From a virus (Duplodnaviria > Caudoviricetes), in the IMG/VR virus record IMGVR_UViG_3300046786_000638, positions 1 to 37,319 of that record: a stretch of DNA of 37,319 bases; one strand, 5' to 3'. The notes below the pieces were generated by a model. The model was given only the letters and a program-made list of their open reading frames with translations, had not been told where the DNA came from and did no database searches. Positions within the stretch are counted from its first letter, which is position 1. Each line of letters starts with the position of its first letter. This document shows, in pieces, positions 3,931 through 37,319 of this stretch. A program made the position numbers and the translations under genes.

Positions 3931-4304
3931 TTAAAATCGTCCTTGCTGGAATGGCGCCAGCCAAGAAAAACTCAAAAAGATGGATTCAGAGGGGTGGACT
4001 GAGGTTCCTAGTACCCTCAGAAAGGCATGAAACGTGGCATGGTGGGGCTTTTGTAGAAGTTTTGAGGCAGACTAAGGGTGTACGTCAAAAGATGCCCTTA
4101 AATGTCCAAAAAATCGAAATGACGTTTTACTGCGCTGACAAGAGGCGGAGAGACAGCACGAACTGTGCGGAGAGTATCATGGACTTGTTGGTGGATGTGG
4201 GGGTGATCAAGGACGACAACATGATCGAAGTACCAGAACTGAGACTTGTGTACGGAGGGGTGGTAAAGGAAAACGCTAGAACGGAAATCATTATTTATCT
4301 ATGA
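3927..4304 (+). CDS. rusA: RusA-family Holliday junction resolvase
   Basis: PAKKNS and DKRRRDSTNCAESIMDLL...GVIKDDN motifs. Confidence 0.85.
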   Translation: MIKIVLAGMAPAKKNSKRWIQRGGLRFLVPSERHETWHGGAFVEVLRQTKGVRQKMPLNVQKIEMTFYCADKRRRDSTNCAESIMDLLVDVGVIKDDNMIEVPELRLVYGGVVKENARTEIIIYL

Positions 4305-4959
4305 AACTAATCTTGCAACTTTGCGCTGACACAGGAAGTGATACAAAACCGTACCGAGACGCAGGGTACGATGTTATTCTTGTCGGGAAAGAAATCGGAG
4401 TAGAAAACTATCACCCTCCAAAAAACGTATACGGTATAATTGCTAACCCAGTATGTACGGAGTTCTCGACAGCAAGGAGTGACGGAAAAGCAAGAAACCC
4501 AGAAGAGGGTATGAAACTTGTGAACGAGTGTTTGAGAATTATAGATGAGTGTGACGACTCTCTAAAGTTTTGGGTAATAGAGAAAACCCTGCTCGTGGAG
4601 TACTAAAAGACTTTTTGGGGCCTCCTCAGTTTCAATACCAACCGTGGGAGTACGGAAGTCCGTGGACTAAACATACCGCTCTGTGGGGAAAGTTCAACAC
4701 ACCTCCTAAGTTGTTCCAAAAGTGGGAAGACGTACCTAAAATACCAGAGCTTTATACACGACCTGGAAGGGGAAAGCCATCACTCGCTTTTATGCACGCA
4801 AAAGCACACATGAAGTTTATTCGAGAGTTTGACTGTTTCGCAGAGGAAATACTTAAAAAACCATCAAGAGACAAAAAGAACGGAGGAGGTGCAGACATGG
4901 AGTTTCGATCACTAAACTCTCAGAAGTTTGCCAAGGCTTTTTTTGAAGCCAATCGGTGA
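4301..4959 (+). pseudogene. DNA cytosine-5 methyltransferase, frameshifted at ~4580
   Basis: Motif I-like ILQLCADTGS and motif IV NPVCTEFS are present. Motif VI FWVIENP is split between frames (4301-4606 and 4570-4959). Confidence 0.8.
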
Positions 4960-5063: not shown

Positions 5064-5516
5064 ATGATAAAAATAAAGTTTTTCCTACCTGACGAAAGCG
5101 ACGACGCAAACCATTTTCTTGAACAGAACGGAAACGCAAATGGTGTGATCGCATATACCACAAACGGTATCTATGTCACGTATGAAGACGGGGTGTTTAC
5201 TGACGGGATGAAGAAGACCGTGCTTTTTAATAAGATGATCGACGCACAGAAGAAGAAGACCATTGTGGAAGCGGACTATAACCGTGACGCAAAGGATTAC
5301 AGCGTGTTTTCACAGGAGGTGGTTGACTTGAAAGAGAAGATCGCAAACTGTAGTGACCCTGCTGAGGCAAAGAAGTTGAAAGGGGATCTTAAAACGTCTG
5401 AGGATGCTGCACAAAACGCAAGTAACCAAATGCTTCTTCAGCTTGGAACGATGAGAGTGTACGACAAGGAGATTGACGGATGTAAACTTGTGCTAGAGGC
5501 AATGAACCATGCTTAG
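5064..5516 (+). CDS. Hypothetical coiled-coil protein
   Basis: 150-aa ORF after an AT-rich promoter-like region with two DnaA-box-like motifs. Confidence 0.75.
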   Translation: MIKIKFFLPDESDDANHFLEQNGNANGVIAYTTNGIYVTYEDGVFTDGMKKTVLFNKMIDAQKKKTIVEADYNRDAKDYSVFSQEVVDLKEKIANCSDPAEAKKLKGDLKTSEDAAQNASNQMLLQLGTMRVYDKEIDGCKLVLEAMNHA

Positions 5517-5913
5517 GATAGACATAGCGACAATTCCAACTGAAAGTCAGCGCTATAAAACGCTTGGAGACTACTATGCAAAATACTCAGGAGGACTTAT
5601 TTTTGATGTAGTTGCAGTTTCAGACATGGGGAATCGTTACTACGAGTTTCTTATTGCTCTACACGAAGTGGTAGAAATGTGTCTTTGTCAGAAACGAGGA
5701 ATCAAAGAAGAAGACATTACTGCTTTTGATGTAGCTTTTGATAAAGATGGGGAGCCAGGAGACGACCCACGTGCTCCGTACTTCAAAGAACATCAGTTTG
5801 CCACCACATTGGAGAAAATGATGTGTGCTGAGCTTGGTATAGATTGGGACGTTTATAATCAGTTTTGTGACCAGTTTTTCAAGTCTACGTATGACAATAG
5901 TAAAGTCGCTTAA
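5509..5913 (+). CDS. Hypothetical protein, possible metal-dependent hydrolase
   Basis: IALHEVVE (HExxE) and downstream EHQFA. Also QRYxTxGDY and PGDDP motifs. Confidence 0.6.
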   Translation: MLRIDIATIPTESQRYKTLGDYYAKYSGGLIFDVVAVSDMGNRYYEFLIALHEVVEMCLCQKRGIKEEDITAFDVAFDKDGEPGDDPRAPYFKEHQFATTLEKMMCAELGIDWDVYNQFCDQFFKSTYDNSKVA

Positions 5914-12663: not shown

Positions 12664-13164
12664 ATGTCTGCAAAAAAAGGTTCTGTGCCTTGGAATAAAG
12701 GTAAAAAACTAACAACAGAGCATAAGAGAGCACTGAGTGTTTCACACATAGGAAAGAAGCCGTGGCTTGGTAAAAAACATACCAAAGAATCAAAAGAAAA
12801 GAACTCATTATCTAACAAGGGTCGTATTGCTTGGAATCGTACATACTCTGACCCAGCAGAATCAAAAAGGTTCAGAAGTTGGTGCAAGAATAAGAGAAAC
12901 CGAACAAAGAGACTTCTTGTTAGAGACGGAAAATCTCACACTTTTGCAGAATGGGAACTATTAAAAAAACAGTATGGTAACACCTGTCCTTGCTGTATGA
13001 AAAGTGAGCCGGTTATTAAGCTAACCAAAGACCACATCATACCAATAATTAAGGGTGGTACTGACTGCATAGAAAATATACAACCATTATGCCAACCGTG
13101 TAATTCTATGAAACACACAAAAATTATTAAGTTTAATATAATTCCCTACAAAACGAAGAAGTAA
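12664..13164 (+). CDS. HNH homing endonuclease with NUMOD3-like repeats
   Basis: PWNKGKK and GKKHTKESKEK. CPCC...DHIIP...GG...NIQPLCQPCNSMK. Confidence 0.92.
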   Translation: MSAKKGSVPWNKGKKLTTEHKRALSVSHIGKKPWLGKKHTKESKEKNSLSNKGRIAWNRTYSDPAESKRFRSWCKNKRNRTKRLLVRDGKSHTFAEWELLKKQYGNTCPCCMKSEPVIKLTKDHIIPIIKGGTDCIENIQPLCQPCNSMKHTKIIKFNIIPYKTKK

Positions 13165-13188: not shown

Positions 13189-14487
13189 GTGGCAGCATCC
13201 CCAAACACAATGGATTTGCAGGAAGTGTGGAGTTTGGAGTACCAAATCACGCACTACAAGCAACCTGTCTACCGTGCTTTCGCTGAGTTCTCTCTTGAGG
13301 CAAAGCTTAAGAAAGGTCAGACTGTTCACCGCACATACGCTTCCGACTTCGTTGTAAACGATCTCGGTGGTGACGGTGCATACTCAACACAAGCTGTTTC
13401 TGACACTGATGAAACACTCACTGTCTCAACAAAGAAGGAAGTTTCTTTCTACCTCACTGATGTAGAAGAACTCCAGGCACAGCTCCCTGTTCGTATCAAG
13501 TACGCACGAAAGGCAATGAACCGCCTTTTCCTACAGATTGACGGTGACGTTCTTTCTGCAGCGTACCAAGCAGCAGGTTCTACTATTGATGATGGTTCTA
13601 TTGGAGGTACAACTGGAAACAGCATTGTAGCGACAGTAGCAAATGTTCAAAACATCTTCATCAACGCTTTGCAAGCTCTACAGCTTCAAAACATCATCTT
13701 CGATCCAGCGGCTCAGTTCACTGGCGAAGTAAAGCAGGATCGTATATCTACGATGCCAATTGCAGTCGTTTCACCACAGCTTTACGGAGTTCTTTTGAAC
13801 TACGTTGGCGGTAAAAACTCTGCGTTTGGAGATCGTGTAGCAATGAACGGCCACCTTGGTCAGTTCATGGGGTTCAACTTGTTCTCAAGTAACAACTCAC
13901 CATACTCTGCACAGCTCCAAATCCCTACAAACCCTACTGATGGTGACACAATCGCTATCAACGGTGTAACACTTACATTCAAGACAACAGTGGACGCAGG
14001 TGTTACTGCAGGACAGGTGAAGATTGCCTCAACAGCAGCCCTCACAGCTACAAACCTCGCAGCGTTCTTGAACGCTCCTGGAACAACAGTAGCAGACTCT
14101 ACAAACGCAGGTTACAACGCTGTTTCTACAGCAAACCAGGCTCTTTTGAAGAACTTGGTTGCCTCAGTTGCAAGCTCTACAAACATCAACATTAAGATGG
14201 CCGGACGTGGTTCGGTTGTCGTATCGTCAGTGTTTACATCAGCAAACAACTCATGGCCTGTAACACTACAGACACAGCACCTCATCTTCGGTGTGAATAA
14301 CAGCATTTCTATTGTTATTCAGAAAACTCCGAACATGATCATCAACCCTGTCTCTGGCAAGGTTGGAAAGGATATCGTTACGTGGACACTCTACGGTATC
14401 AAGGTGTTCAAGGATCAGGTTCCTATGCTTGTTGACGTACAAATCAACACAAACGGATTTACAAGTCCAGCAAACATCTTCTACTAA
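13189..14487 (+). CDS. Major capsid protein (P22 gp5-like) with inserted domain
   Basis: After scaffold. KKGQTVH, GQFMGFNLFSSNN and terminal LYGIKVF motifs. GTG start. Confidence 0.88.
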   Translation: MAASPNTMDLQEVWSLEYQITHYKQPVYRAFAEFSLEAKLKKGQTVHRTYASDFVVNDLGGDGAYSTQAVSDTDETLTVSTKKEVSFYLTDVEELQAQLPVRIKYARKAMNRLFLQIDGDVLSAAYQAAGSTIDDGSIGGTTGNSIVATVANVQNIFINALQALQLQNIIFDPAAQFTGEVKQDRISTMPIAVVSPQLYGVLLNYVGGKNSAFGDRVAMNGHLGQFMGFNLFSSNNSPYSAQLQIPTNPTDGDTIAINGVTLTFKTTVDAGVTAGQVKIASTAALTATNLAAFLNAPGTTVADSTNAGYNAVSTANQALLKNLVASVASSTNINIKMAGRGSVVVSSVFTSANNSWPVTLQTQHLIFGVNNSISIVIQKTPNMIINPVSGKVGKDIVTWTLYGIKVFKDQVPMLVDVQINTNGFTSPANIFY

Positions 14488-14505: not shown

Positions 14506-15162
14506 ATGAAAACTTCATCAAAGATTATCTTGGGAGTTATAGGAGCGGTACTAGTAGCTATCGGTCTTGTAACATTCAACAGTTCACACTCAGTAAACCT
14601 TGGGGGGACAGTCGAAAACTTCCCGTCATGGTTTAACAACGGCCTTAGAGTTGGAAGGGGAACCGGAGCAGGTTACTTCGTCGGAGGAAACTCTGGTGAT
14701 ACAACATTTGGAATTGCTACCACCACAAATGGTACAAACCCAATCTTCTCTCTTTCTTCAACCGGTGCGCTTACCGTAAAGGGAGCGTTTACTCAGGGTG
14801 GAGGTGTTGGAACAGTTGCCACAACGTCAACAACGTACACACTCGCTTCAACCGACTTCGATACTGAAAACATCGTCTCGGTTACGCCAGGTGGAGCATC
14901 ACTCACGCTTACTCTTCCAGCTTCATCTACGTTCCCACTTGGAACAACAGTAGGAAGTGAACGAGAGATATTCGTGGTCAATGCTACTACTACATCTGGA
15001 ATTAACATTACGATGGCGACTACAACAGGAGTATTCCTACGCACGTCATCGTCAACAGCTATCATCCAGTCTGATACAGCAGGAGCAAAGGGTGCAGTCC
15101 TTCGCGCAGTTCGCAAGGCAAACTCTGACATCTTGGTGTACATGACATCGTTCAACAACTAG
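14506..15162 (+). CDS. Thr/Ser-rich protein with N-terminal signal or anchor (decoration-protein position)
   Basis: MKTSSKIILGVIGAVLVAIGLV, beta-rich body, five A-[ST]3 motifs. Confidence 0.75.
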   Translation: MKTSSKIILGVIGAVLVAIGLVTFNSSHSVNLGGTVENFPSWFNNGLRVGRGTGAGYFVGGNSGDTTFGIATTTNGTNPIFSLSSTGALTVKGAFTQGGGVGTVATTSTTYTLASTDFDTENIVSVTPGGASLTLTLPASSTFPLGTTVGSEREIFVVNATTTSGINITMATTTGVFLRTSSSTAIIQSDTAGAKGAVLRAVRKANSDILVYMTSFNN

Positions 15163-15208
15163 TGTCTACTCTATACCCCACGTGTGTGGGGTATAGGACT
15201 AGGTACTA
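15160..15208 (+). terminator. Long hairpin after the capsid genes (terminator or mRNA-stabilising stem)
   Basis: CTATACCCCAC-GTGT-GTGGGGTATAG (15171-15196) with an extended lower stem. No U tract. Confidence 0.6.
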
Positions 15209-15230
15209 AATACCTAAAATCATTCTTATT

Positions 15231-15626
15231 ATGACACCACTAAAAAAAGCACTACTCGCACTAACAGCTATATATCTAGCGATTTTCAGTTTCTACGCGT
15301 TTACACATCAGCAAAGCGTAAATCCTTCTCTTGGCGAAGGTTCAACTATCAACAACTACTACGGCATTCCAACAAACGCAAGTAGCACAATCGGTACAAC
15401 GTCTGCACTTATCAGTGCTACAAGCACTGCCAGAACTTACTACATGGTCACAAACAAGACAGGTGGTACGCTCACCGTCAGCGTTGGTGTTCCTGCGGTT
15501 ACAAACAAGGGAGTTGTTCTCGCTGATGGAGCAAGCTGGACAATGAACACAAGCAAGATTTTTACTGCCGCAATTTACGGTATTTCTACAGCAACAGGTT
15601 CAGTCTCAATACTAGAAGCAAAGTAG
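15231..15626 (+). CDS. Thr/Ser-rich protein with N-terminal signal or anchor
   Basis: MTPLKKALLALTAIYLAIFSFYAF, with a beta-sandwich-like C-terminus. Confidence 0.75.
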   Translation: MTPLKKALLALTAIYLAIFSFYAFTHQQSVNPSLGEGSTINNYYGIPTNASSTIGTTSALISATSTARTYYMVTNKTGGTLTVSVGVPAVTNKGVVLADGASWTMNTSKIFTAAIYGISTATGSVSILEAK

Positions 15627-15627
15627 C

Positions 15628-16518
15628 ATGTACCCTATTCTACCTGGACAATCATTTACGATAGTACGACAACTAGGACTTCCTGGTGATACTGCGACGT
15701 ATTATGTACAGGCAGTAGTAAAAAACTCTGTTACTGGTGCTGTTATTGCTACTGTAAACCTCTCAGGGAACTCAGCACAGCGGTATACTGGCACATTTCA
15801 AGCACCTGCTGATAAAACAGGGCTTGGTACCAATATTGACATCACCACGTCTGTGTACACAGACAGTGGGTATACAACTCCTTCACAGCTCTACTCGATA
15901 GAAAACACCACATACGTAGTGCGAGATACCTCAAGGTGGGGTAACGGTGGAGGAGGACTCGGTGGTGGATCTACCTCATACAGCCCTGATGTAGACTACG
16001 AAAAAATAAGAAAAATGATTTTGGAAGCTGTAGCGTCGATTGTTTTCCCAGTGTTCCCAGAGATGCCAGAGCACAAGGAGACTGACTTATCAGGTGTTAT
16101 GTCAAAGATTGAGTCACTTGAGAGCGCAATACAAGGCAAGGACTTGTCTCCAATTCACGAAAAAGTATCTGCTCTGCATACGTTTGTTCAAGAAAAACTT
16201 GAGCAAATAGTTGAAACGATACACAGCAAGCCAGAGTTCAAAGAAACAGACTTGTCACCTATTCTTGATGCAGTGGAAGACTACTTTGAAGACCACAAAG
16301 AAATGCTTAAAGGTAGCGTTTCTTCTCTACGTGAAGACCTCATGTCGAAGCTAGAGGACTTGGACAACCTCGACACGTCGCTTGAGGAGTTGCTTACAAA
16401 GACACAGGAACACCTTAAACGAAAGAGGGTTAGACTATCTGAAACAAAAGAGGCACAAGCAGAACCAGAGAAGGACATTTTTGAAATTATTAGGAGCATT
16501 TACCCAAAGAAAAAGTAG
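15628..16518 (+). CDS. Hypothetical structural-region protein
   Basis: Beta-rich N-domain, Gly linker, helical C-terminus with repeated (ET)DLSP/G. Confidence 0.75.
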   Translation: MYPILPGQSFTIVRQLGLPGDTATYYVQAVVKNSVTGAVIATVNLSGNSAQRYTGTFQAPADKTGLGTNIDITTSVYTDSGYTTPSQLYSIENTTYVVRDTSRWGNGGGGLGGGSTSYSPDVDYEKIRKMILEAVASIVFPVFPEMPEHKETDLSGVMSKIESLESAIQGKDLSPIHEKVSALHTFVQEKLEQIVETIHSKPEFKETDLSPILDAVEDYFEDHKEMLKGSVSSLREDLMSKLEDLDNLDTSLEELLTKTQEHLKRKRVRLSETKEAQAEPEKDIFEIIRSIYPKKK

Positions 16519-16521
16519 ATC

Positions 16522-19005
16522 ATGAAAACACTAGCACACAAAATAATATACATACTGCTTGGAGCAACTATAGTGACGAGTCTGGCGTACGCAGACACAG
16601 TTTCTCCTCTCCCTTTCCTTTCTCGTGTTTCTTCTGGTGACACGAACCCAAACTACCTTTTTTCAAAGTTGGTTGCTGGCACTGGCATAACACTTACAAA
16701 AAATAACCCGGGAGCAAACGAAACCATCACTATTGCTGGTTCTGGATTCGCTACAGGTACAAACATGTGGGGTGGAAGCCTTGCTGGCAGTATTTACAAC
16801 TTAAACTCAGGCAATGTCGGTATCGGAACCACTACTCCAGCCGGGTCTCTTCACGTAGCTGGAACTTCAGGAGCTATTTTCGGAACAGCAACAGGAACTG
16901 TAGGGACTCTTTCTCTAACCTCATCAGCACAAGGTTCTCCTGTGAGTGGTCGATTAGCTTTTGGTACAGATGGAACTGGTTGGCAATTTAGAATTGCTCA
17001 GAATAATCAAGGGGTTATTTCAGATCTGATGACTTTTGTAACTGGGGGTAATATAGGTATTGGGACGAGTACGCCAGTTTCTAAGCTTCAAGTTGTGGGT
17101 GGAGATATAGCGCTTGATACCAACAGATACCTTTTCGCTCCTGGGAGCGGAACTCTCAATATAGGTGACTCATCGGATAACATCAATATTGCTAATGGTT
17201 CAATTTACGCGACACCAAATGGAGGAAATGTGGGAATCGGTACATCAACACCAGCAACTAAGCTTCATGTTCTTTCTTCTGGTCAAGAAGTTGCCCGATT
17301 TGAATCATCAGATACTCCATATATTTCTTTTGTTGCACCAGGAGCTGTGACAAGCGGTATAATCGGAAGTGATTATGCAGTTTCAGGTGGTATTAACGCA
17401 AATACCGACTTAGGTTTTAGAACAGCTGGAAATATGATTTTCCATACTAATGGCTCACCAGAACGAATGAGAATCACCTCAGCTGGAAACGTGGGAATCG
17501 GGACGACGAGTCCACAAGCAAAACTCGCTGTGTCAGGTAGTGATGCAACTGTTGCGATAGATAATAATGGTGGTAGCGCAAGCTTCCTCCGCATGTTCAA
17601 TAACGGTACACAGAGATTTGTTATCGATGCAAGAAGTACTGCTACTGCTCTTAGTTCGCCGACTTCACCGATGACATTCAATACTGCATCAACAGAAAGA
17701 ATGCGTATCGACAACGCAGGAAACGTTGGTATCGGAACCACGACACCTACTGCAAAATTAAGTGTTACAGGCAATGGAACAGGTAGTATTCTTATGGGGG
17801 ATGCGACTATCAGCAATCATGCTTCTATCTCTCTTAATGGAACGCTTAGCAATCCTAGCTATAACTTCAGTAGTAGTGTCTCGGATACAAATCTTTATAT
17901 CAATAGGCCAACTGGATCAGGTATACAGTTCCGAGAAAACAATGGCACACCGCAAATGATTATTGCAACAGGTGGCAACGTCGGTATTGGAACCACAACA
18001 CCAATCTCTCTCTTCCACATAAGCGGCACAACAGCAGCAACAGCAACACTTGAAACAACAACAGCAAACAAAACAGCAAGTCTCACATTTAGAGCAAATG
18101 CTACGGGTAACAGTGTGGACTTGGGTACAATGGACTTCTACAACGCCGCATCAGGTATAAACGCTACTGTGTCTCAAATCGCTGGATTCCAAGGCTCATC
18201 TGCAAGTGATGGAGCGCTTCGCTTCTCTACACGAAGTGGTTCTGGTTTGGTGGAAGCTGTAAGAATAAACAATGTGGGAAACACAGGGTTTGGAACAACA
18301 TCTCCTCTCTACAGAATTGACACCTACAACACAGACGGATCTTCACTTGCACGATTTAAAGACACCGACAGCACCTATGCAGGAGTGGTGATCTCAGGTG
18401 ATACAAATGGTGGATACGTTGGAAACACAGACATCGGAACAGGTGTGGGCGAGTCCATCTACTTCCAGAATAGTCTAAACGCAATGCGTTTCTATACGCT
18501 TGGTACAGAGAGATTCCGTATATCGTCAAATGGAAACGTCGGTATTGGTACGACAAGCCCGATAACAACACTTGATGTGAACGGAACGATCACACAAGCA
18601 ACGGTAAAATCCTGTTCTCTTGGCCTTACGACCGACGCATCAGGCAGTATCACTGGATGTGTCGTTTCTGATAAGAGTGTAAAGAAAAACATCAAACCTC
18701 TCACTAAGTCCATCGACACGTTGATGAAACTAAAAGCTGTCACTTACAAGTGGAAAGATACAACCAAAGACAACCAGGTACACAGTGGGTTTATCGCTCA
18801 AGAGGTGGCAAAAGTGCTACCAGAGGCGGTAGTATCTGCTGGGGAAAAACTAAAAGGTGTTGATCCAAACGCTGTTATCGCCCTTGTTGTGAAGTCCGTG
18901 CAAGACCTTGTGATAAGGGTTGCAGGATTAGAGGAGAGGTTAGATGAACAACAAGAGGAAATAGACGAACTTCGTGCGTTACTCATTAAAAATAACATTA
19001 AGTAA
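16522..19005 (+). CDS. Tail fibre or spike with C-terminal peptidase S74 chaperone and N-terminal signal peptide
   Basis: 8 GN(V/I/T)G(I/F)GT(T/S)xP repeats. SDKSVKKNI...GFIAQEV S74 domain plus coiled coil. N-terminus MKTLAHKIIYILLGATIVTSLAYA. Confidence 0.88.
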   Translation: MKTLAHKIIYILLGATIVTSLAYADTVSPLPFLSRVSSGDTNPNYLFSKLVAGTGITLTKNNPGANETITIAGSGFATGTNMWGGSLAGSIYNLNSGNVGIGTTTPAGSLHVAGTSGAIFGTATGTVGTLSLTSSAQGSPVSGRLAFGTDGTGWQFRIAQNNQGVISDLMTFVTGGNIGIGTSTPVSKLQVVGGDIALDTNRYLFAPGSGTLNIGDSSDNINIANGSIYATPNGGNVGIGTSTPATKLHVLSSGQEVARFESSDTPYISFVAPGAVTSGIIGSDYAVSGGINANTDLGFRTAGNMIFHTNGSPERMRITSAGNVGIGTTSPQAKLAVSGSDATVAIDNNGGSASFLRMFNNGTQRFVIDARSTATALSSPTSPMTFNTASTERMRIDNAGNVGIGTTTPTAKLSVTGNGTGSILMGDATISNHASISLNGTLSNPSYNFSSSVSDTNLYINRPTGSGIQFRENNGTPQMIIATGGNVGIGTTTPISLFHISGTTAATATLETTTANKTASLTFRANATGNSVDLGTMDFYNAASGINATVSQIAGFQGSSASDGALRFSTRSGSGLVEAVRINNVGNTGFGTTSPLYRIDTYNTDGSSLARFKDTDSTYAGVVISGDTNGGYVGNTDIGTGVGESIYFQNSLNAMRFYTLGTERFRISSNGNVGIGTTSPITTLDVNGTITQATVKSCSLGLTTDASGSITGCVVSDKSVKKNIKPLTKSIDTLMKLKAVTYKWKDTTKDNQVHSGFIAQEVAKVLPEAVVSAGEKLKGVDPNAVIALVVKSVQDLVIRVAGLEERLDEQQEEIDELRALLIKNNIK

Positions 19006-19006
19006 T

Positions 19007-19561
19007 ATGGAAACAACAACAGAGGAAGCAATCGCAATAATCGCACAACTAAAAGCACAGGTGGACGCACAGGTGGACGCACAGAAAAAAGTATCAGACG
19101 CGCATCAAATCATCCTCGATAGACTAAACGGGATCAGAGAAACACCTGCGGCAGATTACGTCGTGCTACAAGAAGCACTTACAAAGAAAGAACAAGAAGT
19201 TGCAACACTTGCGGCATCTCTTAACGAGAAAGAGGTATTGATCCAAACAAAGGACGCGACACTAAGTGAAAAAGACGCAGAACTAGCATCACTCACGGTA
19301 GCGGTTACAGAGAAAGATGAACAAATTAACCTACTTTCAACAGAAAAAGAATCAGTAGTTGCTCAACTTTCTACCGTTGAAGCTGATCTCGCCGCTAAAG
19401 AAGCACAACTAGTAGAGAAAGACGCACAGATAGCTTCAAAAGAAGCAGAACTAAGCGAGAAAGATACTCAAATCGCCACACTCTCGTCTGAAAAGGTTGC
19501 GCTACAAGAAGAAGTAGCAAAGAAGGTAGAGGTTGCAACTGTGGAAGAAGTTGTACCGTAG
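19007..19561 (+). CDS. Long coiled-coil protein
   Basis: Heptad repeats of the EKDAELA type. Confidence 0.8.
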   Translation: METTTEEAIAIIAQLKAQVDAQVDAQKKVSDAHQIILDRLNGIRETPAADYVVLQEALTKKEQEVATLAASLNEKEVLIQTKDATLSEKDAELASLTVAVTEKDEQINLLSTEKESVVAQLSTVEADLAAKEAQLVEKDAQIASKEAELSEKDTQIATLSSEKVALQEEVAKKVEVATVEEVVP

Positions 19562-19570
19562 TACATATAT

Positions 19571-19837
19571 ATGACCTTGCTCGACGAACACATAAAAGAA
19601 GATCAAGAGAGATACGAGACTATGCAAAAAATACTTTTTGGAGACGAAAACTCAGGTGAGCTAGGAATGACGCAGAAAGTTGACGCGATGTACGAAATAC
19701 TTGTTAGTGCAAAAACACTCATCAGTATACTTGACAGCTTCGGAAAGATGACAAAGTGGATCGTAGGTATAGGACTAGCTTTTGCGTTGTTTAAGGGTTG
19801 GCTTGTTTCACTTATTCACTACTTACTCATCAGGTAA
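19571..19837 (+). CDS. Holin-like small membrane protein
   Basis: Helical N-terminus plus one C-terminal hydrophobic helix. Confidence 0.5.
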   Translation: MTLLDEHIKEDQERYETMQKILFGDENSGELGMTQKVDAMYEILVSAKTLISILDSFGKMTKWIVGIGLAFALFKGWLVSLIHYLLIR

Positions 19838-19838
19838 C

Positions 19839-20762
19839 ATGAACACAGAAGATATACCAAGAAAAACAGTAGTTGAAGGACTTTTACCACTTCCAGTAGA
19901 CTCAAGAGACTTTCAACATTCTCAGGTTTTTGGTGCGTCAAACTTTCGTGCTGATATTGACTTCGATGTTTCAAGTGTGAGCAAGATAAAAAACCAGTTT
20001 GACACAGACTGTTGTGCTGGGTTTTCTACAAGTGAAGTGAACGAAGACATACAAGGAGTGGTATTTTGCCCTTGGTACCAGTTTGCAAAGATAAAACAAG
20101 TGACAGGAGACTACAAGGCGTATGGAGCAGACCTCCGCAGTGCTTGTAAAGCGCTTGTGAACTATGGATCTCTACCAGTCGAAAAGTCTCCTTACTTCCA
20201 CGACCCGAACAAACCACAGTCAAAAGACAGAGACTTTATCGCAAACTGGACAAACTGGCCACAGTCACTCGACATAACAGCAGGGCTTTACAAGTGCGGT
20301 TCGTTCTTTGCTGTCGACGGGTCAGGTGACTACTTCGACAACATTCGGTCTACTCTGTGGCAGAACAAAGATCAGCATGTACCAGTAGAGTTTGGTGTTA
20401 TGTGGAGAAACGAGTGGACATATGTTTCTAATGGAGTAATACCGGAAGCAAACTACGACACACCATCTGGTAGCGGACACGCACTCAAGATTGTTGGGCA
20501 GAAGGTGATAAATGGAGTTCCTTACCTCAAGGTGCAAAACTCGTGGGGAACAGACTACGGAGACATGGGGTATTACTATTTCCCTCGTAGTGTTATAAAT
20601 AAAGAAGTAAAGATGTTCGGAGCATTTACACTCAAAGACATGGACGCTCAGACGGCAAAAACCTACATTGCCTACAATTTGACAACACAGGACGGTCTAA
20701 TTGGTGCAATCGTAAAAATAATCATGTCGCTCTATAACGACTTTAAAATACTACTCTCATGA
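19839..20762 (+). CDS. Papain-like (C1) cysteine peptidase
   Basis: KNQFDTDCCAGFS, GHA, QNSWGTDYGDMGY. Confidence 0.9.
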   Translation: MNTEDIPRKTVVEGLLPLPVDSRDFQHSQVFGASNFRADIDFDVSSVSKIKNQFDTDCCAGFSTSEVNEDIQGVVFCPWYQFAKIKQVTGDYKAYGADLRSACKALVNYGSLPVEKSPYFHDPNKPQSKDRDFIANWTNWPQSLDITAGLYKCGSFFAVDGSGDYFDNIRSTLWQNKDQHVPVEFGVMWRNEWTYVSNGVIPEANYDTPSGSGHALKIVGQKVINGVPYLKVQNSWGTDYGDMGYYYFPRSVINKEVKMFGAFTLKDMDAQTAKTYIAYNLTTQDGLIGAIVKIIMSLYNDFKILLS

Positions 20763-21475
20763 CAACATACACAGGCGCACAACTATATTCACTTCTAACA
20801 TTCCTACTCGGTGGAGAGCAAATCGACGAGGATTCGTTCTACCAACTACTTGACATTTGTCGTGGAAACAGAGAAATGATGCGCCCTTGGTGTGTTTTGA
20901 AGAAGGTTGACACAACACAAACGATGTCACCAAGCGACACGTTCAGAACAGCAAAGACACTCCCAGAAGATTTCCGTCGAACACTTGACCAAAATACGAT
21001 GCAACCTTACGATCCAACAGCAGGAACTACAGGTGACGTATACGACTACTACGCAGAAGTACCATTTGAAGAACAACTCAATTATAAGGATGCCAACGCT
21101 TTCTTCATCGACTACGCAAACAACTTGTTCTACGTGTGTGGTACATGCTCAAAGCAACTCACTATCTACTTTTTCTACATAGCAGACTACGGGCCAATAA
21201 CAAGTTCAACATCTTGGCTCAAGTTCCCTGGACTTTTTGCCCCAATTCTCGCTTTCGATGTAGCGGTTATGTACAAGGGTGGTGTTGACTATGACGCCAT
21301 CAATGCTCGCATGGCAGAATACAACGGTATGGACGCAAAGAAGATAGAGCAAGCAATGGAAAAGTGGGACAACCAGCTTGCTTTGTCACAAAGAAGGGGT
21401 ATCAACTACTCTGACAGCACGAGTCGTGGCTACAGAAGTGGTGCTATTGACGTGTACGGAAACCTAGACAACTAA
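20759..21475 (+). CDS. Head-to-tail adaptor (tail tubular A-like)
   Basis: Size, TLPEDF motif, position before the gp10-like gene. Confidence 0.65.
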   Translation: MTTYTGAQLYSLLTFLLGGEQIDEDSFYQLLDICRGNREMMRPWCVLKKVDTTQTMSPSDTFRTAKTLPEDFRRTLDQNTMQPYDPTAGTTGDVYDYYAEVPFEEQLNYKDANAFFIDYANNLFYVCGTCSKQLTIYFFYIADYGPITSSTSWLKFPGLFAPILAFDVAVMYKGGVDYDAINARMAEYNGMDAKKIEQAMEKWDNQLALSQRRGINYSDSTSRGYRSGAIDVYGNLDN

Positions 21476-21479
21476 CAAA

Positions 21480-23789
21480 ATGGCAAGAATTAGAGGAAAA
21501 AAATCAGCCACAGCAGACATCCAGGAGTACATTATTGACGTGTGGGGAGGTTTAAATACCGCTGTAAAGAACATTCGAGAACTTGAAGCAGGGTACGCCT
21601 CAAGATCAGTAAACTGGATGACTGGGTGGGATCCTATCAAGAAGAAAGCTGACCGCATAGAACTTCGACGTGGTTCAACAAACCTTGGAATTACAGATCA
21701 AGGTGCTGGCAAAGTGACAGGTCTTGGTGTTGGAACAAAGTACGACGGTACAGAAGTGCCTTTTTTCTCATACGCTCGTAAACTTATGTACTGGGACAGT
21801 GTTACACAAGACTACGCAGAAATAAGTAGCAACATACTCCCTGCTACAGCAAGTGGAGAGGATGTAGACTTCCACCCATATACGAACCTTGCTGGTGCTT
21901 TTATCTACGCGTGTTCACCAAACTCTGACTTTTACAAAATACCTGTCGCAAACCCAGGAAGTGCGGTAGCTCAAAGTGCGTCGCAACGAGGAAGGTTCAA
22001 CATTTACAAAAACGCTTCATATTTGTGGCAGAAAATACCGTCTTCATCAGTGTCCACCACAGCGTTGCGAGACAATACCGGTCTTTCTCGTTCCTACATA
22101 GACGCAAACCTCCTCACACACTATACGTCCATTGGAAACGACTACATGAGCCTACCTGGAAAGCCGTCTGGTGTGGTGAGTTTGACGGGAGGTAACATAG
22201 CAGACGGAACGTACTACTACGTCGTAACAGCTTTTGGCCCGTCAGGAGTAGAAACTACAAAAAGTGTAGAAAGTGACGCCATTGTTGTGGCTGGTGGAGG
22301 AGGAAATGCAAAAATAACACTAACATGGACAGCCCCAGCAGGAGCGAATGGGTACAATGTGTTCCGAACTACAGTGTCAGGTACGTACACAACACCTGCG
22401 CTCGTGTCTGCGTCTATTCTTGGTACTTTGACCGTTCCAACACTTGTTGACACGCTTGCTTCACCAACGACAGGAGCACCTGCCGGAACTACAACACAGC
22501 CACTCATCCCTGCTATCGGAACTGGTGACGGTAGTACCAAGACATTCAGTGGCACACTTTCAAATATAAGCGGTGCTTTTACTGCTTTTATAGTAAACAT
22601 CACGGACGGGATAGAAAACTTCACAGACACTAAAAACGGAACATTCCAAGGCTCTCTTAGTGGTACAGGTACGATAAACTACGCAACTGGTGCGTACTCT
22701 GTGACGTTTAATACTGCCCCGGCTAGTGGAGTGCCTATAACCGCAAGCTACTACAGAGAGGACGCAACCGTTGGAGGAATACTCGACTACACATACTCAG
22801 CAACGCGTACTATTGGACAAGGTGAATACTATCCACAGTTTGACGGATCAGGAATACTGCAAAACACACTCCCGTATGCAGGACAGACATACCAGTTTCA
22901 CAACCGGTCTGTGTGGAGCCTTCTTCTTTCTCAAGGGGATCTCACAAACACAAACAACCCGTTTCGAGACACTATGGGAATACCGTATCACCGAGCAGCG
23001 TTTGCTGACGCGGACGGTATTTCTTTCCTCGACAACACAAACCCGGCACAACCAAGAGTAAAACTGCTATCTATACCTGCCACAAGCACAACAACGCTAC
23101 CTTCTGACCTTTCAGATGTGCTTGACCTTTCTCCATATACACTCACATCTGCTGTTGTGTACAGGTGGGGAGACTACCGAATTGTGTCTTTACAAGGGAC
23201 AAAAACGTACAACGATACCACTTTTGTACAAAATGTGAATAGTAAATACTGGGATCAGCTCGACTATCGTATAACGTGTTGCGCTGAGTACAACGGCACA
23301 CTCCTTGGAGGAGACTCAATCTCTAACAATGTGTACGTCTTGTTCTCAGGTTTTGACGATGACGGGCAGGTTATCTCAAACGTATGGGAAAGTGGAGAAA
23401 TGGACTTGACGCTAGACGGCCAGAAGAAAGTAAAACGTATGGTGATAGAGGGACTTATACAACCAAATCAGTCGTTTGACATAAACCTTGGCTACGACGG
23501 AGGAACACCTGTGAACGTGTTTACGGTTCAAGGAGATGGTGTGTATGTGTCAAAAGGTACACCAACAACAGTTGGAAACTACACACTTGGAAGCAAGGTT
23601 GTTGGTAGTACAGATCAAGTATCTGCGTACCCATACCGTGTGGACTTTCTTATTGCCACAGACAAGTTCGAGTTTATAAAAGTACAGCTAGTCGCGCAGG
23701 GAATAGGGTATGTTTCAGTGAACCGTATGGTGTTCAAAGACATACGAAACAAAGGACATCATCTTATACCAACTCAAACAGTTGGGTAG
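21480..23789 (+). CDS. Tail tubular/stabilisation protein (P22 gp10-like) with inserted Ig/FN3-like domains
   Basis: WGGLNT and RRG N-terminal motifs. YYYVVTA...TLTWTAPAGANGYNVFR insertion. Confidence 0.75.
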   Translation: MARIRGKKSATADIQEYIIDVWGGLNTAVKNIRELEAGYASRSVNWMTGWDPIKKKADRIELRRGSTNLGITDQGAGKVTGLGVGTKYDGTEVPFFSYARKLMYWDSVTQDYAEISSNILPATASGEDVDFHPYTNLAGAFIYACSPNSDFYKIPVANPGSAVAQSASQRGRFNIYKNASYLWQKIPSSSVSTTALRDNTGLSRSYIDANLLTHYTSIGNDYMSLPGKPSGVVSLTGGNIADGTYYYVVTAFGPSGVETTKSVESDAIVVAGGGGNAKITLTWTAPAGANGYNVFRTTVSGTYTTPALVSASILGTLTVPTLVDTLASPTTGAPAGTTTQPLIPAIGTGDGSTKTFSGTLSNISGAFTAFIVNITDGIENFTDTKNGTFQGSLSGTGTINYATGAYSVTFNTAPASGVPITASYYREDATVGGILDYTYSATRTIGQGEYYPQFDGSGILQNTLPYAGQTYQFHNRSVWSLLLSQGDLTNTNNPFRDTMGIPYHRAAFADADGISFLDNTNPAQPRVKLLSIPATSTTTLPSDLSDVLDLSPYTLTSAVVYRWGDYRIVSLQGTKTYNDTTFVQNVNSKYWDQLDYRITCCAEYNGTLLGGDSISNNVYVLFSGFDDDGQVISNVWESGEMDLTLDGQKKVKRMVIEGLIQPNQSFDINLGYDGGTPVNVFTVQGDGVYVSKGTPTTVGNYTLGSKVVGSTDQVSAYPYRVDFLIATDKFEFIKVQLVAQGIGYVSVNRMVFKDIRNKGHHLIPTQTVG

Positions 23790-23790
23790 A

Positions 23791-23826
23791 TTACAAAAAG
23801 ACAACAAATTATACAATACATCCATG
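23791..23826 (+). promoter_or_regulatory. Leaderless promoter
   Basis: TTACAA-N15-TACAAT-N6-ATG. Confidence 0.55.
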
Positions 23827-25224
23827 TTACATACTCTTCTCACAAAAATAGGAATGTCTATAGCAGGTATGGGTCTTATGATTGGTGGCTTGCTTGGAGC
23901 ACCAGGAGTAGACCTTCTGACGCAGAACCTTGGGTCTACTGTTCCACAACTTCCTGCAAACTTTGAAACATCGCTCGCTTCCCCTATTCTGTCTACTGAC
24001 ACGTCAATGACACTCGTTTCTGGTACACTTGCAGACGGAACAACACTTTCAGGGTATACCTGTTTCGTTGTTGACTCAGGTCTTTCAAACAGTGAGTTTA
24101 TCTGTGGAACTGCGTCAAGTACGTCTGTTACATCACTTGTGCGTGGTATAAACCCAACATCAGGCACAACCACGGTATCTGCACTACAGTTCTCACACCG
24201 ACGAGGGGCTGACGTAAAAGTTTCTGACTACCCAGCAATCGGAGTCATGAGAAACATACTTGCCGGAGTGGATGGTTTCCCTGGTGCTGTGCGTTACGAC
24301 ACCGGAGTTGCTACCACTACCATCATCCTAGACGGAAGAAACCTCGTAAACTACTCACTTCTACAAAGCACTGCTTTCTCTGGTGCTGTCCCTGCTTCTA
24401 CTACAACGCTTGGACTGGTAAAAATGAGTACTGATCCTTCGTCTGCTTCAAGCCCGATCGCCGTAGGTACCAACGACGTTCGTCTAACAGGAAAGTCGGG
24501 TACAGTGCTTTCTTCCACAAATCCACCAATTGACCTTGCGTATACTGCCACAACGTCAACAGCAAACAGAGTAGTAACAGCATCATCTACTGGACTTATT
24601 GACAACAGTTTTATCGACTCTGGTACTACAGCAAGCAAAATAGTAAAACTTGACGCGTCTGCAAAACTTCCTGCGGTGGACGGATCACAGCTCACGAACC
24701 TTCCTGGTTCTGGTCTTATATATTCAACTAGTACAGCGACAACAGTTGCTAGTTCTGCGTCAGAAACAAACTTTGCATCTACTACCATACCAGCAAATAC
24801 AATCTCCACGGCTGGATCTGTACTTCGTCTAAGGGCACACATTTCTGCTTTTGCTATTTCAGGAACTTCAAATAGTGCTACTTTCAGGTTTAAGTACGGC
24901 GGAACAACACTTGCAACGAATACTTTTTCAACAAACGCTTCTAACGGTGCAGGAACTGGGTACTCAGGTACTATAGAGTTCGTTATCATTGCAACAAGCA
25001 CCGCGGCACAAAAAGGAGTAGCAGTAACACAAGTAGCAATAGGAACTTTTGGTAACAACGCTGGATCTCTTAGTGGTGCTTCTGCTTCTACCCAAACGGG
25101 TACAGCAAACGGAACTGTAGATGCGACAGCAGCACAAAGTCTTGTGTGTACAGTGCAGTTCAGTAACAGCGGAGCAAACGATAACGTAACAATACAGGAT
25201 ATTGTTGTAGAAAAAATAAAGTAA
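23824..25224 (+). CDS. Tail fibre- or needle-like Thr/Ser-rich protein with hydrophobic N-terminus
   Basis: MLHTLLTKIGMSIAGMGLMIGGLLG. Fibre motifs ASTTTLGLVKM and KLPAVDGSQLTNL. Confidence 0.7.
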   Translation: MLHTLLTKIGMSIAGMGLMIGGLLGAPGVDLLTQNLGSTVPQLPANFETSLASPILSTDTSMTLVSGTLADGTTLSGYTCFVVDSGLSNSEFICGTASSTSVTSLVRGINPTSGTTTVSALQFSHRRGADVKVSDYPAIGVMRNILAGVDGFPGAVRYDTGVATTTIILDGRNLVNYSLLQSTAFSGAVPASTTTLGLVKMSTDPSSASSPIAVGTNDVRLTGKSGTVLSSTNPPIDLAYTATTSTANRVVTASSTGLIDNSFIDSGTTASKIVKLDASAKLPAVDGSQLTNLPGSGLIYSTSTATTVASSASETNFASTTIPANTISTAGSVLRLRAHISAFAISGTSNSATFRFKYGGTTLATNTFSTNASNGAGTGYSGTIEFVIIATSTAAQKGVAVTQVAIGTFGNNAGSLSGASASTQTGTANGTVDATAAQSLVCTVQFSNSGANDNVTIQDIVVEKIK

Positions 25225-29219: not shown

Positions 29220-29256
29220 TTACAAAACCTGTGGATAGCATACAATGGTACAAATG
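29220..29256 (+). promoter_or_regulatory. Leaderless promoter with DnaA-box-like spacer
   Basis: TTACAA-N15-TACAAT-N7-ATG. TGTGGATAG at 29230-29238. Confidence 0.55.
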
Positions 29257-30660
29257 GCACTCTTCGGTAATATAAAAATGAATAACCCGGAAGCAAATGG
29301 TATGAAGTACCTCTTTATCTCTTTTGGTGGGGAATCTTTACCTATCGCATACAAGCTCGTACAAGAGGGCAAAACAGTGGTATACGGCATGATAGACGAC
29401 AGCAAGGACACTCTCACTGAGAACGAACTAGACGGCTACAACCCCGAAAGACCGGAAGACAAGAAGTACCGACTTAGACTTTACGACGGTTTACTAGAAA
29501 AAAACACAGCGGATCAAGTGGTTGTGTGGGCAAAATCAGTCAAAAACCCATCAGAGTGGTTCGTTTTCTCTGACATCAACAACACATTCAAGTACATGGA
29601 CAAACTGCGTGCTATGGGCTTCGTAGGCCTTATGCCGACAGAAGAAGAACGAACAATGGAAGCAGATCGCAACAAGGCAAAGGAGTTCGTAAAAAAACAC
29701 TACAAAGACCTCGACGTTGCAGAAGTGCAGGAGTACAGCAAAGTGGAAGACGCTGTTGATTTTTTGGAGGAAACTGAGGACACGTGGGTACTTAAAGCGC
29801 TTGGCGAACGAGGAAAAACAATAGTGCCGCAGACTCATGACGTAGAGTTTGCAAAGACAGCACTCATTGATGTGCTCACTGAAAAGAAAAAAGACTACGA
29901 AAGTGAAGGGTTCATACTTGAAAAGCGTATACACCCTGTTAGAGAAGTGACACCGGAAGCTGTGTTTTGGGACGGAAAACTCGTATTTACTACCGTTGAC
30001 ATAGAAAATAAGCCGGCATTTGACGGAAACCTTGGGTGTCAAACTGGTTGCTCTCAGTGTATTGTGTTTGAAACAGACAAAAAAGCAAAGATAAACGACA
30101 TCGCTTTCCCGCCTGTCGTGTATGAGATGGCAAAAAAGCACAAAGGGATGTTCGTGTGGGACGCGTCTATCTACCTCGATGAGAAAGACAACATGTACTT
30201 CGGAGAGTTTTGTGCAAACCGTGTTGGTTGGGACAGTATTTTCGCTGAAATTGTAATGAGTGACTCCGTTAGTTCATTTTTCGAGGGAATAGTGAACCAA
30301 GAAAGTCCATTTATTCACAAGTACGGATCTACTGTGAGAGTGTTCAACATACTACCAAATGGAAAACTTATGGAAGACGGCCTGATACAGTGGAAAGACT
30401 GGGTTGAAGATTACGTTTTTGTGTACGACATGTACAAAAAAGGAGACACGTTTGTGACAACTGGTGCAACGTGGGACACCGCTATCATAACAGGGTGTGG
30501 AGACACCGCGGAAGAAGCGATAGACGAAGCATATGAAAACTGTGAGTTCTTCAACTTTGAAGCTGACATGCACAGAACAAAACGCGACTTTCTAGCAACA
30601 GACTACGAAAACGCAATCATGGACAGACACTCACATTTATTAAAGTCTAGCCTACTATAA
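29254..30660 (+). CDS. PurD (GARS)-like ATP-grasp ligase, divergent
   Basis: EADRNKAKEF, WVLKALG, FILEKRI, ENKPAFDGNLGCQTG and GEFCANRVGW parallel PurD motifs. Start codon uncertain. Confidence 0.75.
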   Translation: MALFGNIKMNNPEANGMKYLFISFGGESLPIAYKLVQEGKTVVYGMIDDSKDTLTENELDGYNPERPEDKKYRLRLYDGLLEKNTADQVVVWAKSVKNPSEWFVFSDINNTFKYMDKLRAMGFVGLMPTEEERTMEADRNKAKEFVKKHYKDLDVAEVQEYSKVEDAVDFLEETEDTWVLKALGERGKTIVPQTHDVEFAKTALIDVLTEKKKDYESEGFILEKRIHPVREVTPEAVFWDGKLVFTTVDIENKPAFDGNLGCQTGCSQCIVFETDKKAKINDIAFPPVVYEMAKKHKGMFVWDASIYLDEKDNMYFGEFCANRVGWDSIFAEIVMSDSVSSFFEGIVNQESPFIHKYGSTVRVFNILPNGKLMEDGLIQWKDWVEDYVFVYDMYKKGDTFVTTGATWDTAIITGCGDTAEEAIDEAYENCEFFNFEADMHRTKRDFLATDYENAIMDRHSHLLKSSLL

Positions 30661-31608: not shown

Positions 31609-32034
31609 ATGGACTACAAAAAACTTCTCATACTTGTTCTGTGCTACATACTTATGTACCGCACGGAAACGGCGCACGCTGTTACACAAGAACCTGTTAC
31701 AGTGAACGACATACAGATCAAAATATCTGCCTATGCTTTTATTTACGGCATAGATGTCGACGTTTTCTCCACCGTTTTGTCTTGCGAAAACCCATCCCAC
31801 GACCCAAAACTGCAAAGTGAGATGAAGTACACAAGAGATCACCCTGAGTGGGGAGTAAAAAAAGGAGACAGAGAACTTTCTTATGGACTGAGTCAAATAC
31901 ACCTACCGACAGACAAAAGTGTTACCTACGAAGAAGCAACTGACGTAGACTTCTCACTTCGTTATATGGCAAGCGAACTTTCAAAAGGGCACGGCTCTCG
32001 ATGGAGCTGTTACAACCTACATTACAAAGTGTGA
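31609..32034 (+). CDS. Exported lytic transglycosylase (SLT-like)
   Basis: Signal-like KKLLILVLCYILMY...AHA. LSCEN catalytic Glu, SYGLSQI, terminal WSC. Leaderless TACCAT-N6-ATG. Confidence 0.75.
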   Translation: MDYKKLLILVLCYILMYRTETAHAVTQEPVTVNDIQIKISAYAFIYGIDVDVFSTVLSCENPSHDPKLQSEMKYTRDHPEWGVKKGDRELSYGLSQIHLPTDKSVTYEEATDVDFSLRYMASELSKGHGSRWSCYNLHYKV

Positions 32035-36621: not shown

Positions 36622-37319
36622 TTATTGTGTTAGTTTGTTACCTTTTTTGTCGCACTCATACAGCACTGTTCCTTTTTCAAATGCAATTTTGTGTGGGTAC
36701 TGAGGGTTTTCCCAAGCATACATGTCTTTCGGATTTACCGATATTGCAATATACTTGTCGTCACTTGTTTTCCTAAACTCATCACAGAAGTAGGTACGTG
36801 AACACGCATGAAACTTTCCTTCTCCGCACTCCTCTTTTTCTGGGTTGTAGTCGTGATGTTGCATCTTTTTACCTATACTCCAAAGTGTCTCGTTTTTGCT
36901 ACCTTCTTGGGTCTTAAAGTCAGATGAAACTCTTTTGTAAACAATCACTTCTTTTTCTTTCTCGATTCCCTCTTTTTCGAGCCATCCATTTACGCCAGGT
37001 TTATATTTCGGAACTATCACGGTCGCCGTTTTAGCTTTCTTTATGATTTTACCTTTGGCGAGTTCCCAACACACTGAAAACGCAAAAAGTGCCACAGTTG
37101 CATAGTCCGAACTTAGGCGGACAGCACTGTTCCCCCACGCCTCCACTGAACTGTTCTCCCGCGCCACCACTGAACTGTTCCCCCACGCCACCACTGAACT
37201 GTTCCCCCGCGCCACCACTGAACTGTTCTCCCGCGCCACCACTGAACTGTTCCCCCACGCCACCACTGAACTGTTCCCCCACGCCACCACTGAACTGTTC
37301 CCCCGCGCCACCACTGAAC
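36622..37319 (-). CDS. C-terminal part of the octapeptide-repeat protein with globular C-domain (possibly DUF7666-like)
   Basis: V(V/E)A(W/R)(G/E)NSS repeats followed by a VYKRV...ECGEGKFHAC...KI domain. Confidence 0.85.
   Translation of the reverse strand, partial: SVVARGNSSVVAWGNSSVVAWGNSSVVARENSSVVARGNSSVVAWGNSSVVARENSSVEAWGNSAVRLSSDYATVALFAFSVCWELAKGKIIKKAKTATVIVPKYKPGVNGWLEKEGIEKEKEVIVYKRVSSDFKTQEGSKNETLWSIGKKMQHHDYNPEKEECGEGKFHACSRTYFCDEFRKTSDDKYIAISVNPKDMYAWENPQYPHKIAFEKGTVLYECDKKGNKLTQ
37126..37319 (-). repeat. 24-bp coding tandem repeat, 8 units
   Basis: Same unit as at 1-124. Confidence 0.97.

Follow-up and report, generated by a model that had tools for sequence, protein, structure and literature searches.

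Results

Late genes of a short-tailed phage with leader-bearing products

We analyzed a viral record of 37,319 bases (IMG/VR record IMGVR_UViG_3300046786_000638; the window below means this whole stretch of DNA), with an estimated completeness of 99%, and focus on four of its late genes, whose products begin with export-type leaders and look like virion parts. The proteins are labeled A (gene at 14506), B (15231), C (16522), and D (23824). Family matches in the window include a terminase large subunit (6939), a major capsid protein (13189), an S74 fiber (16522), a papain-family peptidase (19839), an ATP-grasp protein (29245), and an amidase (30663). Since no protein of the window matched a tape measure or sheath in Pfam or PHROG, we read the phage as short-tailed, a podovirus. 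The names portal, scaffold, adaptor, nozzle, and ejection-type are given from gene order and size, informative family matches being absent. Across the loci compared (30 selected by A, 38 viral loci selected by D, and 13 genome loci), the order capsid, A, B, 15628-like gene, adaptor, nozzle, D recurs with variations. The features of the region are collected in Table 1.

Table 1. Late-region features of the window from the capsid gene to the end of D ([ST], Ser or Thr; aa, amino acids)
Feature	Position	Strand	Basis or detail
Major capsid protein, no leader; proposed cytoplasmic partner of A and B	13189..14487	+	PHROG 267 major head, E 2.8e-16
A: leader, short attachment segment, and predicted trimeric-spike-type knob	14506..15162	+	Leader aa 1-33 to 14604, ends LG; 4 A-[ST]-[ST]-T
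Perfect hairpin between A and B (terminator-like or processing stem)	15169..15198	+	Folding energy
B: leader and ~95-aa domain; likely capsid decoration or spike base	15231..15626	+	Leader aa 1-35 to 15335, ends LG; 2 motifs
Leaderless 296-aa protein, commonly beside A/B	15628..16518	+	Locus comparison
C: predicted long fiber, AxA signal peptide, C-terminal S74 chaperone	16522..19005	+	Signal aa 1-24 to 16593; PF13884
Holin-like gene and papain-family C1 peptidase, Cys-His-Asn intact	19571..20762	+	PF00112 E 1.6e-10
Probable tail adaptor and nozzle, both leaderless	20759..23789	+	Order and size; conserved order; no Pfam/PHROG match
D: leader, predicted tail-anchoring-type N-domain, Cys80/Cys94, fiber repeat, lectin-like tip	23824..25224	+	Leader aa 1-37 to 23934, ends LG; 6 motifs

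Leaders were called where the best 15-residue Kyte-Doolittle mean within the first 45 to 50 residues was at least 1.6 to 1.7, a hydropathy rule of our own and not SignalP or DeepTMHMM. Among the 24 late-region genes, the best values within the first 45 residues were 2.96, 2.28, 2.22, and 1.72 for the four proteins, and only the holin-like protein at 31312 (2.33) and a 141-residue protein at 31609 (1.69) also exceeded 1.4. The latter gene (31609-32034), which follows the holin-like gene, has its own AxA-type signal and possibly encodes a secreted lysis enzyme. An earlier note on this DNA had reported that four head/tail genes start with basic residues followed by a hydrophobic stretch, and this was borne out: proteins A to D all have a basic n-region and then a hydrophobic h-region, at the positions and with the N termini that it quoted. 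The linker ending in Leu-Gly (LG) that it described for three genes is present in A, B, and D, and C has an AYA site. Small residues at -3/-1 close to the h-region occur in C and in 16 of 96 D forms, and A has a possible earlier S-H-S site. Read by eye, none of the four leaders has a lipobox Cys, a twin-Arg motif, or a Gly-Phe...Glu pattern before the h-region. The D start at 23824 is an internal ATG within an open reading frame (ORF) that opens at a TTG at 23782, and the closest relatives begin at the same place.

If the start sites were mis-called, with true starts downstream of the hydrophobic stretch, the leaders would be untranslated. Of 33 D genes, 7 do have an alternative start-type codon no more than four codons from the mature start, but the remaining 26 have none. 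In the window, none of the four predicted mature starts coincides with an in-frame start codon, and hydrophobic leader character is maintained across about 200 divergent proteins. These observations largely refute mis-calling and leave it scarcely credible.

Leaders are a family trait limited to appendage proteins

The earlier note had proposed export signals on virion-type proteins and suggested examining syntenic phages, and both points are supported by the distribution of leaders among relatives. Protein A has 35 database relatives including itself, 34 of them leader-bearing, and D has 104, of which 95 bear a leader. The 143 B relatives comprise 69 leader-bearing and 39 short leaderless forms, with 35 longer or unclear ones set aside. 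None of 49 major capsid matches in the related loci has a leader; upon clustering, the portal, scaffold, and ejection-type clusters have no leader calls, and the adaptor cluster has 1 in 44. Thus, in this large family of uncultured short-tailed phages, the leader is a family trait limited to appendage proteins.

Leaderless orthologues exist as well. In locus L084, A, B, and the 15628-like genes are absent, and the usual D slot following the nozzle gene is filled by a leaderless form; in a quick nozzle tree, this locus is nested within the leader-bearing relatives (support, 96). In L046, L076, and L081, leaderless genes stand in the place of A or B. Since such orthologues exist, the export route seems dispensable in some lineages. 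Gene 15628 was considered as a required partner and rejected, being absent from L062, which retains leaders.

A lipid-containing virion, or one that exits in a membrane coat, with the leaders as uncut anchors, was an alternative raised in the earlier note. In its favor, the A, B, and D leaders have the length needed for a membrane span. However, the same proteins occur in AxA-cleavable and leaderless forms at the same register, the capsid protein is leaderless, and ordinary lysis genes (amidase and holin-like genes) are present, so that we hold this alternative to be very improbable.

Elsewhere, little or nothing was found in single-protein scans of viral contigs or in a search for A in genome contigs, and PDB sequences gave nothing beyond weak composition matches (E of 0.06 or worse). 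D or A was detected in 1/401, 1/401, and 1/301 of the Patescibacteria sampled.

LG as a probable processing boundary

In the window itself, LG follows the leader in 4 of 5 leader proteins versus 2.2 in shuffled sequences (p ~0.09, not significant), a count that includes one probably spurious minus-strand ORF. Across relatives, LG occurs in 29/34 A forms versus 19.4 +/- 2.7 shuffled, in 56/69 B forms versus 31.7 +/- 3.6 (a count in which about four cases may reflect a VG native to the domain), and in 98/173 leader proteins of the pooled phage loci versus 63.4 +/- 5.6, which supports the idea in the earlier note of a shared processing site.

The register of D is the most informative. We anchored 96 non-redundant members of the 104 on the conserved N-domain (1 was unanchored and 7 near-duplicates were dropped). 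In 63 of the 96, the residues before the mature start are [LVIF]G (register tolerance, -3 to +2); 16 have an AxA-like site near the h-region, 4 have just Met and one more residue, and 13 fit none of these classes, many of them ending in Gly. Gly stands at -1 in 56/88 and Pro at +4 in 76/88. Moreover, D residue 41 aligns to residue 4 of chain 1 in the portal-tail structure of Ralstonia phage GP4, so that D residue 38, directly after LG, corresponds to residue 1. Because the mature start of D is fixed and aligned with residue 1 of that chain, LG is very likely the cut site. In the C family, which is unrelated to D, AxA and [LVIF]G also swap before the same N-terminal motif, as judged by eye.

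Signal peptidase I has a known specificity for small residues at -3/-1. At the LG sites, P3 is often Asn, Ser, or Pro, with N or P frequent at -3, and the linkers preceding LG span 6 to 66 residues (in D, with two truncated records left out), unlike a signal peptidase I site. With these P3 residues and long linkers, signal peptidase I is unlikely to make the LG cut. Several D forms hold an AxA site plus a later LG, and in one of them, P0136, a LysM domain lies between the two, which places the LG cut on the exported side. The LysM domain of P0136 also suggests wall tethering before release.

The location of the cut bears on another explanation, in which the leader parks the proteins on the inner membrane face with their domains cytoplasmic, followed by LG cleavage by a protease of the cytoplasm and assembly at the membrane. 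Parts would then not need to meet across a membrane, hydrophobic-Gly cut sites recall those of viral maturation proteases, and small HExxH proteins lie near the packaging genes in several relatives. However, basic residues precede the hydrophobic stretch in all four proteins and none directly follow it, a pattern from which we infer a C-terminal domain outside; AxA replaces LG at the same register, one linker contains LysM, and a Cys pair described below tracks the leader. We therefore consider an inner-face location improbable.

Predicted folds and the virion

The structure comparison suggested in the earlier note returned a capsid-spike knob for A and a GP4 tail-chain match for D. Residues 96-218 of the A model match residues 196-293 of the Pa223 capsid spike (9ny6_C; Foldseek E 2.2e-5; Z 11.0, rmsd 2.6, 98 aligned), and the A gene adjoins the capsid gene. 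Residues 41-183 of the D model, whose quality is middling overall (pLDDT 67.7), match residues 4-119 of the GP4 portal-tail chain (8jov_1; Z 10.2, rmsd 4.6, 107 aligned), and its tip resembles TNF-like lectins (Z 9.5). A leaderless D relative matches tail-fiber repeats from cultured phages. Residues 41-131 of B match Atlas proteins of 107 to 110 residues (TM 0.63/0.76), and its domain of about 95 residues occurs leaderless in other phages. C matches Pfam PF13884 (S74) at residues 716-770 (E 5e-17) and a PHROG tail fiber (E 9e-44). The leaders of A, B, and D include helices of 21 to 23 residues in the models. By these predicted folds and family matches, A, B, C, and D look like virion parts: a spike, a decoration-type protein, and fibers.

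The exported proteins might instead never reach the particle, remaining on the infected or lysogenic cell's surface to act as adhesins, decoys, or exclusion factors. In a Patescibacteria chromosome, one gene product combines a signal peptide with an A-type knob (L214:592-1995, in G669:C2), and the neighboring genes in the short locus do not look phage-like; Bdellovibrio exports S74 fibers as cell adhesins, according to the available part of PMC10769870; and many LG leaders, having no clear signal peptidase site, could remain anchors. Against a surface role, D has a predicted tail-chain fold, its core slot in the D-selected loci lies between the nozzle gene and the ejection-type genes, the same slot holds a leaderless D orthologue, and the late-operon genes are all co-directional, with no identified fiber on a particle that lacked these proteins. 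Judged solely by fold and gene position, the exported parts probably join the virion, and we regard a purely surface role as unlikely.

Prophage relatives and the likely host

Relatives lie inside host genes on two Patescibacteria contigs (G032:C2 and G034:C9), one Syntrophales contig, and one Vicinamibacterales (Acidobacteria) contig, none of these four prophages being closely related to the window. They are flanked by direct repeats of 22 bp (G032), 14 bp (G034, weak), 17 bp at tRNA-Leu (G033, Syntrophales), and 26 bp at the transfer-messenger RNA gene (tmRNA; G031, Acidobacteria). A five-base Shine-Dalgarno sequence precedes 1/32 genes in the window, 6/64 and 1/64 in the Patescibacteria flanks, and 33/103 in the Syntrophales flank. 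No direct link to a host is present in the window itself; a patescibacterial host for its phage is plausible from these sequence features, and a range limited to Patescibacteria was rejected given the Syntrophales and Acidobacteria integrations. In the latter two prophages (G033:C2, ~115,213-156,318, and G031:C83, ~46,867-87,677), the GC content is below that of the flanks, Shine-Dalgarno sites are few, and the motif described in the next section is present. Either these phages have a very wide host range, or they are Patescibacteria phages able to integrate in larger cells.

A disulfide candidate and an export-linked motif

In the D model, Cys80 and Cys94 lie on neighboring predicted strands. 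Both are found in 81 of the 95 leader forms and are absent in 13; they are absent in 4 distant leaderless forms and retained in that of L084.

The motif A-[ST]-[ST]-T occurs 407 times versus 49.8 expected in 173 leader proteins (about 8-fold) and 72 times versus 42.6 in 683 others. It is not a fiber-repeat artifact, since 400 versus 53.0 remain after the repeat is excluded; of 61 families, 39 exceed the expected count and 11 fall short of it. The 95 leader forms of D hold 329 versus 44.3 and 5 leaderless forms hold 2 versus 2.6; leader-bearing B forms hold 92 versus 5.5; and the window total is 12 versus 1.5. The N-glycosylation sequon is not enriched in the same comparison (767 versus 796).

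On the host side, the motif is enriched in G032, both in exported proteins (23 versus 5.4) and in the prophage (14 versus 1.3), and not in G034, where the counts are 1 versus 5.0 and 0 versus 1.0. Twenty samples of 2 to 20 kb, whose assignment to the class of G034 is inferred, gave 19 versus 3.5 in exported proteins (from 5 genomes) and 3 versus 4.8 in non-exported ones. The motif is not general to Patescibacteria (5 versus 8.6 in 20 other genomes), and the Syntrophales and Acidobacteria prophages carry it as well (10 versus 0.7 and 9 versus 1.0).

Many bacteria O-glycosylate exported proteins that are rich in Ser and Thr. Because exported proteins of some Patescibacteria show the same motif, A-[ST]-[ST]-T is a candidate glycosylation signal. 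A simple host match fails for the Syntrophales and Acidobacteria prophages, so O-glycosylation at the motif remains tentative and should be read as a possibility suggested by sequence. No glycosyltransferase matched in the window with Pfam, and PMT-family matches, present in 12/14 genomes that were motif-positive and motif-negative alike, are uninformative about the transferase.

Candidate proteases for the LG cut

The C1 peptidase of the window (19839-20762) offers a phage-encoded candidate for the LG cut, with export proceeding as otherwise proposed below. Its catalytic motifs are intact, its gene lies inside the virion operon, and papain-family enzymes favor a hydrophobic P2 residue. However, family alignment finds the peptidase in 11/21 near-complete relatives and 15/39 records (an insensitive Pfam search found it in 3/30 records), and records without it, such as L059 and L064, still have LG leaders. 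The gene follows holin-like genes and travels with the lysis cassette, and its slot in L051 holds a peptidoglycan-binding protein. With this patchy distribution and lysis slot, we rejected the enzyme as the general LG protease; it is more likely a lysis enzyme, and its cutting of the leaders is quite improbable.

Small zincin-like proteins with HExxH (HExxE in the window, 5509-5913) lie near the terminase or portal genes in L004, L005, L009, L012, L014, and L053. As LG proteases they were rejected, being scattered, with HExxH-like motifs in only 10 rows.

With these two phage candidates set aside, a host protease is the probable agent. LG as a host-wide signal was nevertheless rejected: it is not enriched in host exported proteins of five host sets, nor in two further Patescibacteria samples (26/122 versus 25.4 and 12/47 versus 13.1). 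In G032, cellular paralogues combine an AxA signal with a conserved pro-piece whose last residues are ILG (L088:13146-14279; L090:83-613 and 632-1351; L115:16354-19075; L121:773-1834), and these are possible natural substrates of the same protease.

Other features of the window

The hairpin between A and B has a folding energy of -26.4 kcal/mol (z -3.9, with 15160-15232 folded), and the strong stem-loop spans 15160-15208. A NUMOD3-HNH endonuclease gene (12664-13164) is inserted between the scaffold and capsid genes. A DNA methyltransferase match (PHROG 757; 4301-4959) runs across two overlapping ORFs, reflecting a frameshift or a sequencing error. A PurD-like ATP-grasp protein is encoded directly upstream of the amidase (29245-30660), as also in L050, L058, and L062. 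On the minus strand, an ORF that runs off the record end (36622-37319) has tandem 8-residue repeats and a weak RIIB-like PHROG match.

Discussion

Tailed phages are taught to assemble entirely in the cytoplasm, and fibers and spikes are known to attach late and spontaneously in T4 and P22. In the explanation that we favor somewhat as a whole, the head, adaptor, and nozzle would be assembled in the cytoplasm, while A, B, C, and D would cross the membrane, likely through the host Sec pathway, leaving the C-terminal domain outside. The AxA forms would be freed by signal peptidase I. The LG forms would await cleavage after Gly by a second protease, probably of the host, meanwhile staying tethered or retaining a pro-piece of at most 66 residues. 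This cut would expose the N-terminal attachment segment, and the freed N termini would dock on particles once lysis breaches the membrane, so that assembly is completed outside the cytoplasm. The most likely reason for export would be modifications available only outside, namely the D disulfide and possibly O-glycans at A-[ST]-[ST]-T. Export of the appendage proteins is the part that their leaders predict with high confidence. The full combination, in which a widespread phage family would pass its spikes and fibers through host secretion much as animal viruses do with their surface glycoproteins, with disulfide formation, O-glycosylation at an A-[ST]-[ST]-T sequon shared with some Patescibacteria, an [LVIF]-Gly protease, outside assembly, and virions with host-type sugars, is doubtful. 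Of the overall interpretation in the earlier note, the export signals, syntenic conservation, and LG processing site are supported and the lipid virion is not; the A-[ST]-[ST]-T motif and the leaderless orthologues were overlooked there.

Several observations weigh against this explanation. Leaderless orthologues show that export is not needed for the fold or the slot. Neither A nor D has a match among cultured phages, and the likeness of D to 8jov chain 1 is one of fold. Since the cellular Patescibacteria fiber of L214 has its knob behind a signal, A-type parts are able to function on the surfaces of cells. The LG enrichment weakens to 26.8/61 versus 20.5 +/- 3.2 when each family is represented by a single member. 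No phage protease co-occurring with the cut site was identified, in an analysis that did not include a whole-genome screen for other protease families, and the lack of LG enrichment in host exported proteins counts as well, because a host protease might be expected to leave such a trace. A-[ST]-[ST]-T does not occur in C of the window, some enrichment persists in leaderless B forms (16 versus 1.8, with 7 from three probably truncated records), and the motif is absent in the small sets of 15 and 8 sampled Syntrophales and Acidobacteria host proteins.

Parts of the arrangement have counterparts in known systems. In filamentous phages, the virion proteins pVIII and pIII have signal peptides and are parked in the membrane before assembly, and the particles are extruded through it; the window phage differs in having terminase, capsid, tail, and lysis genes. 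Pa223 gp52 (PDB 9ny6; bioRxiv 10.1101/2025.06.11.659172) shares with A the C-terminal knob and an N-terminal attachment segment, but, in the part of that report available, it is modeled from residue 2, is leaderless, and has a long triple beta-helix, whereas A lacks that long helix and has a leader ending in LG. The GP4 portal-tail chain (PDB 8jov) matches D in the register of the predicted mature start but starts leaderless, unlike D. In the Pseudomonas podophage A1002, fiber gp41, called similar to the GP4 fiber gp80, lacks about 30 N-terminal residues in the particle, for which proteolysis was proposed (PMC13730344). This is a likeness to D, as a podophage fiber apparently trimmed at its N terminus, by description and not by sequence; the main text of that article, as distinct from its supplements, mentions neither a signal peptide nor a transmembrane segment.

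Bdellovibrio MAT fibers of the S74 subgroup resemble C in being signal-peptide-bearing, S74-chaperoned, and trimeric, but they are cellular adhesins and not products of phage late-operon genes, and no LG site is described in the accessible portion of their report (PMC10769870). Porphyromonas gingivalis phages also have genes with predicted signal peptides, including those for major capsid proteins; they are siphoviruses, and the sections available ascribe the capsid leaders to a prohead protease and others to outer-membrane modification (PMC10367356). In the window phage, by contrast, the capsid is leaderless and the appendages bear leaders. For a patescibacterial phage, the available text of PMC13059738 mentions signal peptides for host proteins, and PMC11256854 mentions mycobacteriophage virions glycosylated by phage glycosyltransferases. 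In the literature covered, outside which most subscription journals lie, no description of exported and processed tailed-phage appendages or of the A-[ST]-[ST]-T motif was found. The observation itself is real, conserved, and unusual; new in it are the constant register of the LG cut and the link between A-[ST]-[ST]-T and export.

The explanation makes specific predictions, which include mature N termini at Gly34 in A, Glu36 in B, Asp25 in C, and Ser38 in D, a Cys80-Cys94 bond, and 12 candidate glycosylation sites. If it is true, the assembly of tailed phages would gain a stage outside the cytoplasm, and the signal peptides on such genes would be accounted for. The analysis likewise directs attention to a Gly-specific protease as yet uncharacterized and to what may be a protein-glycosylation signal in Patescibacteria, a group whose surfaces are poorly understood.

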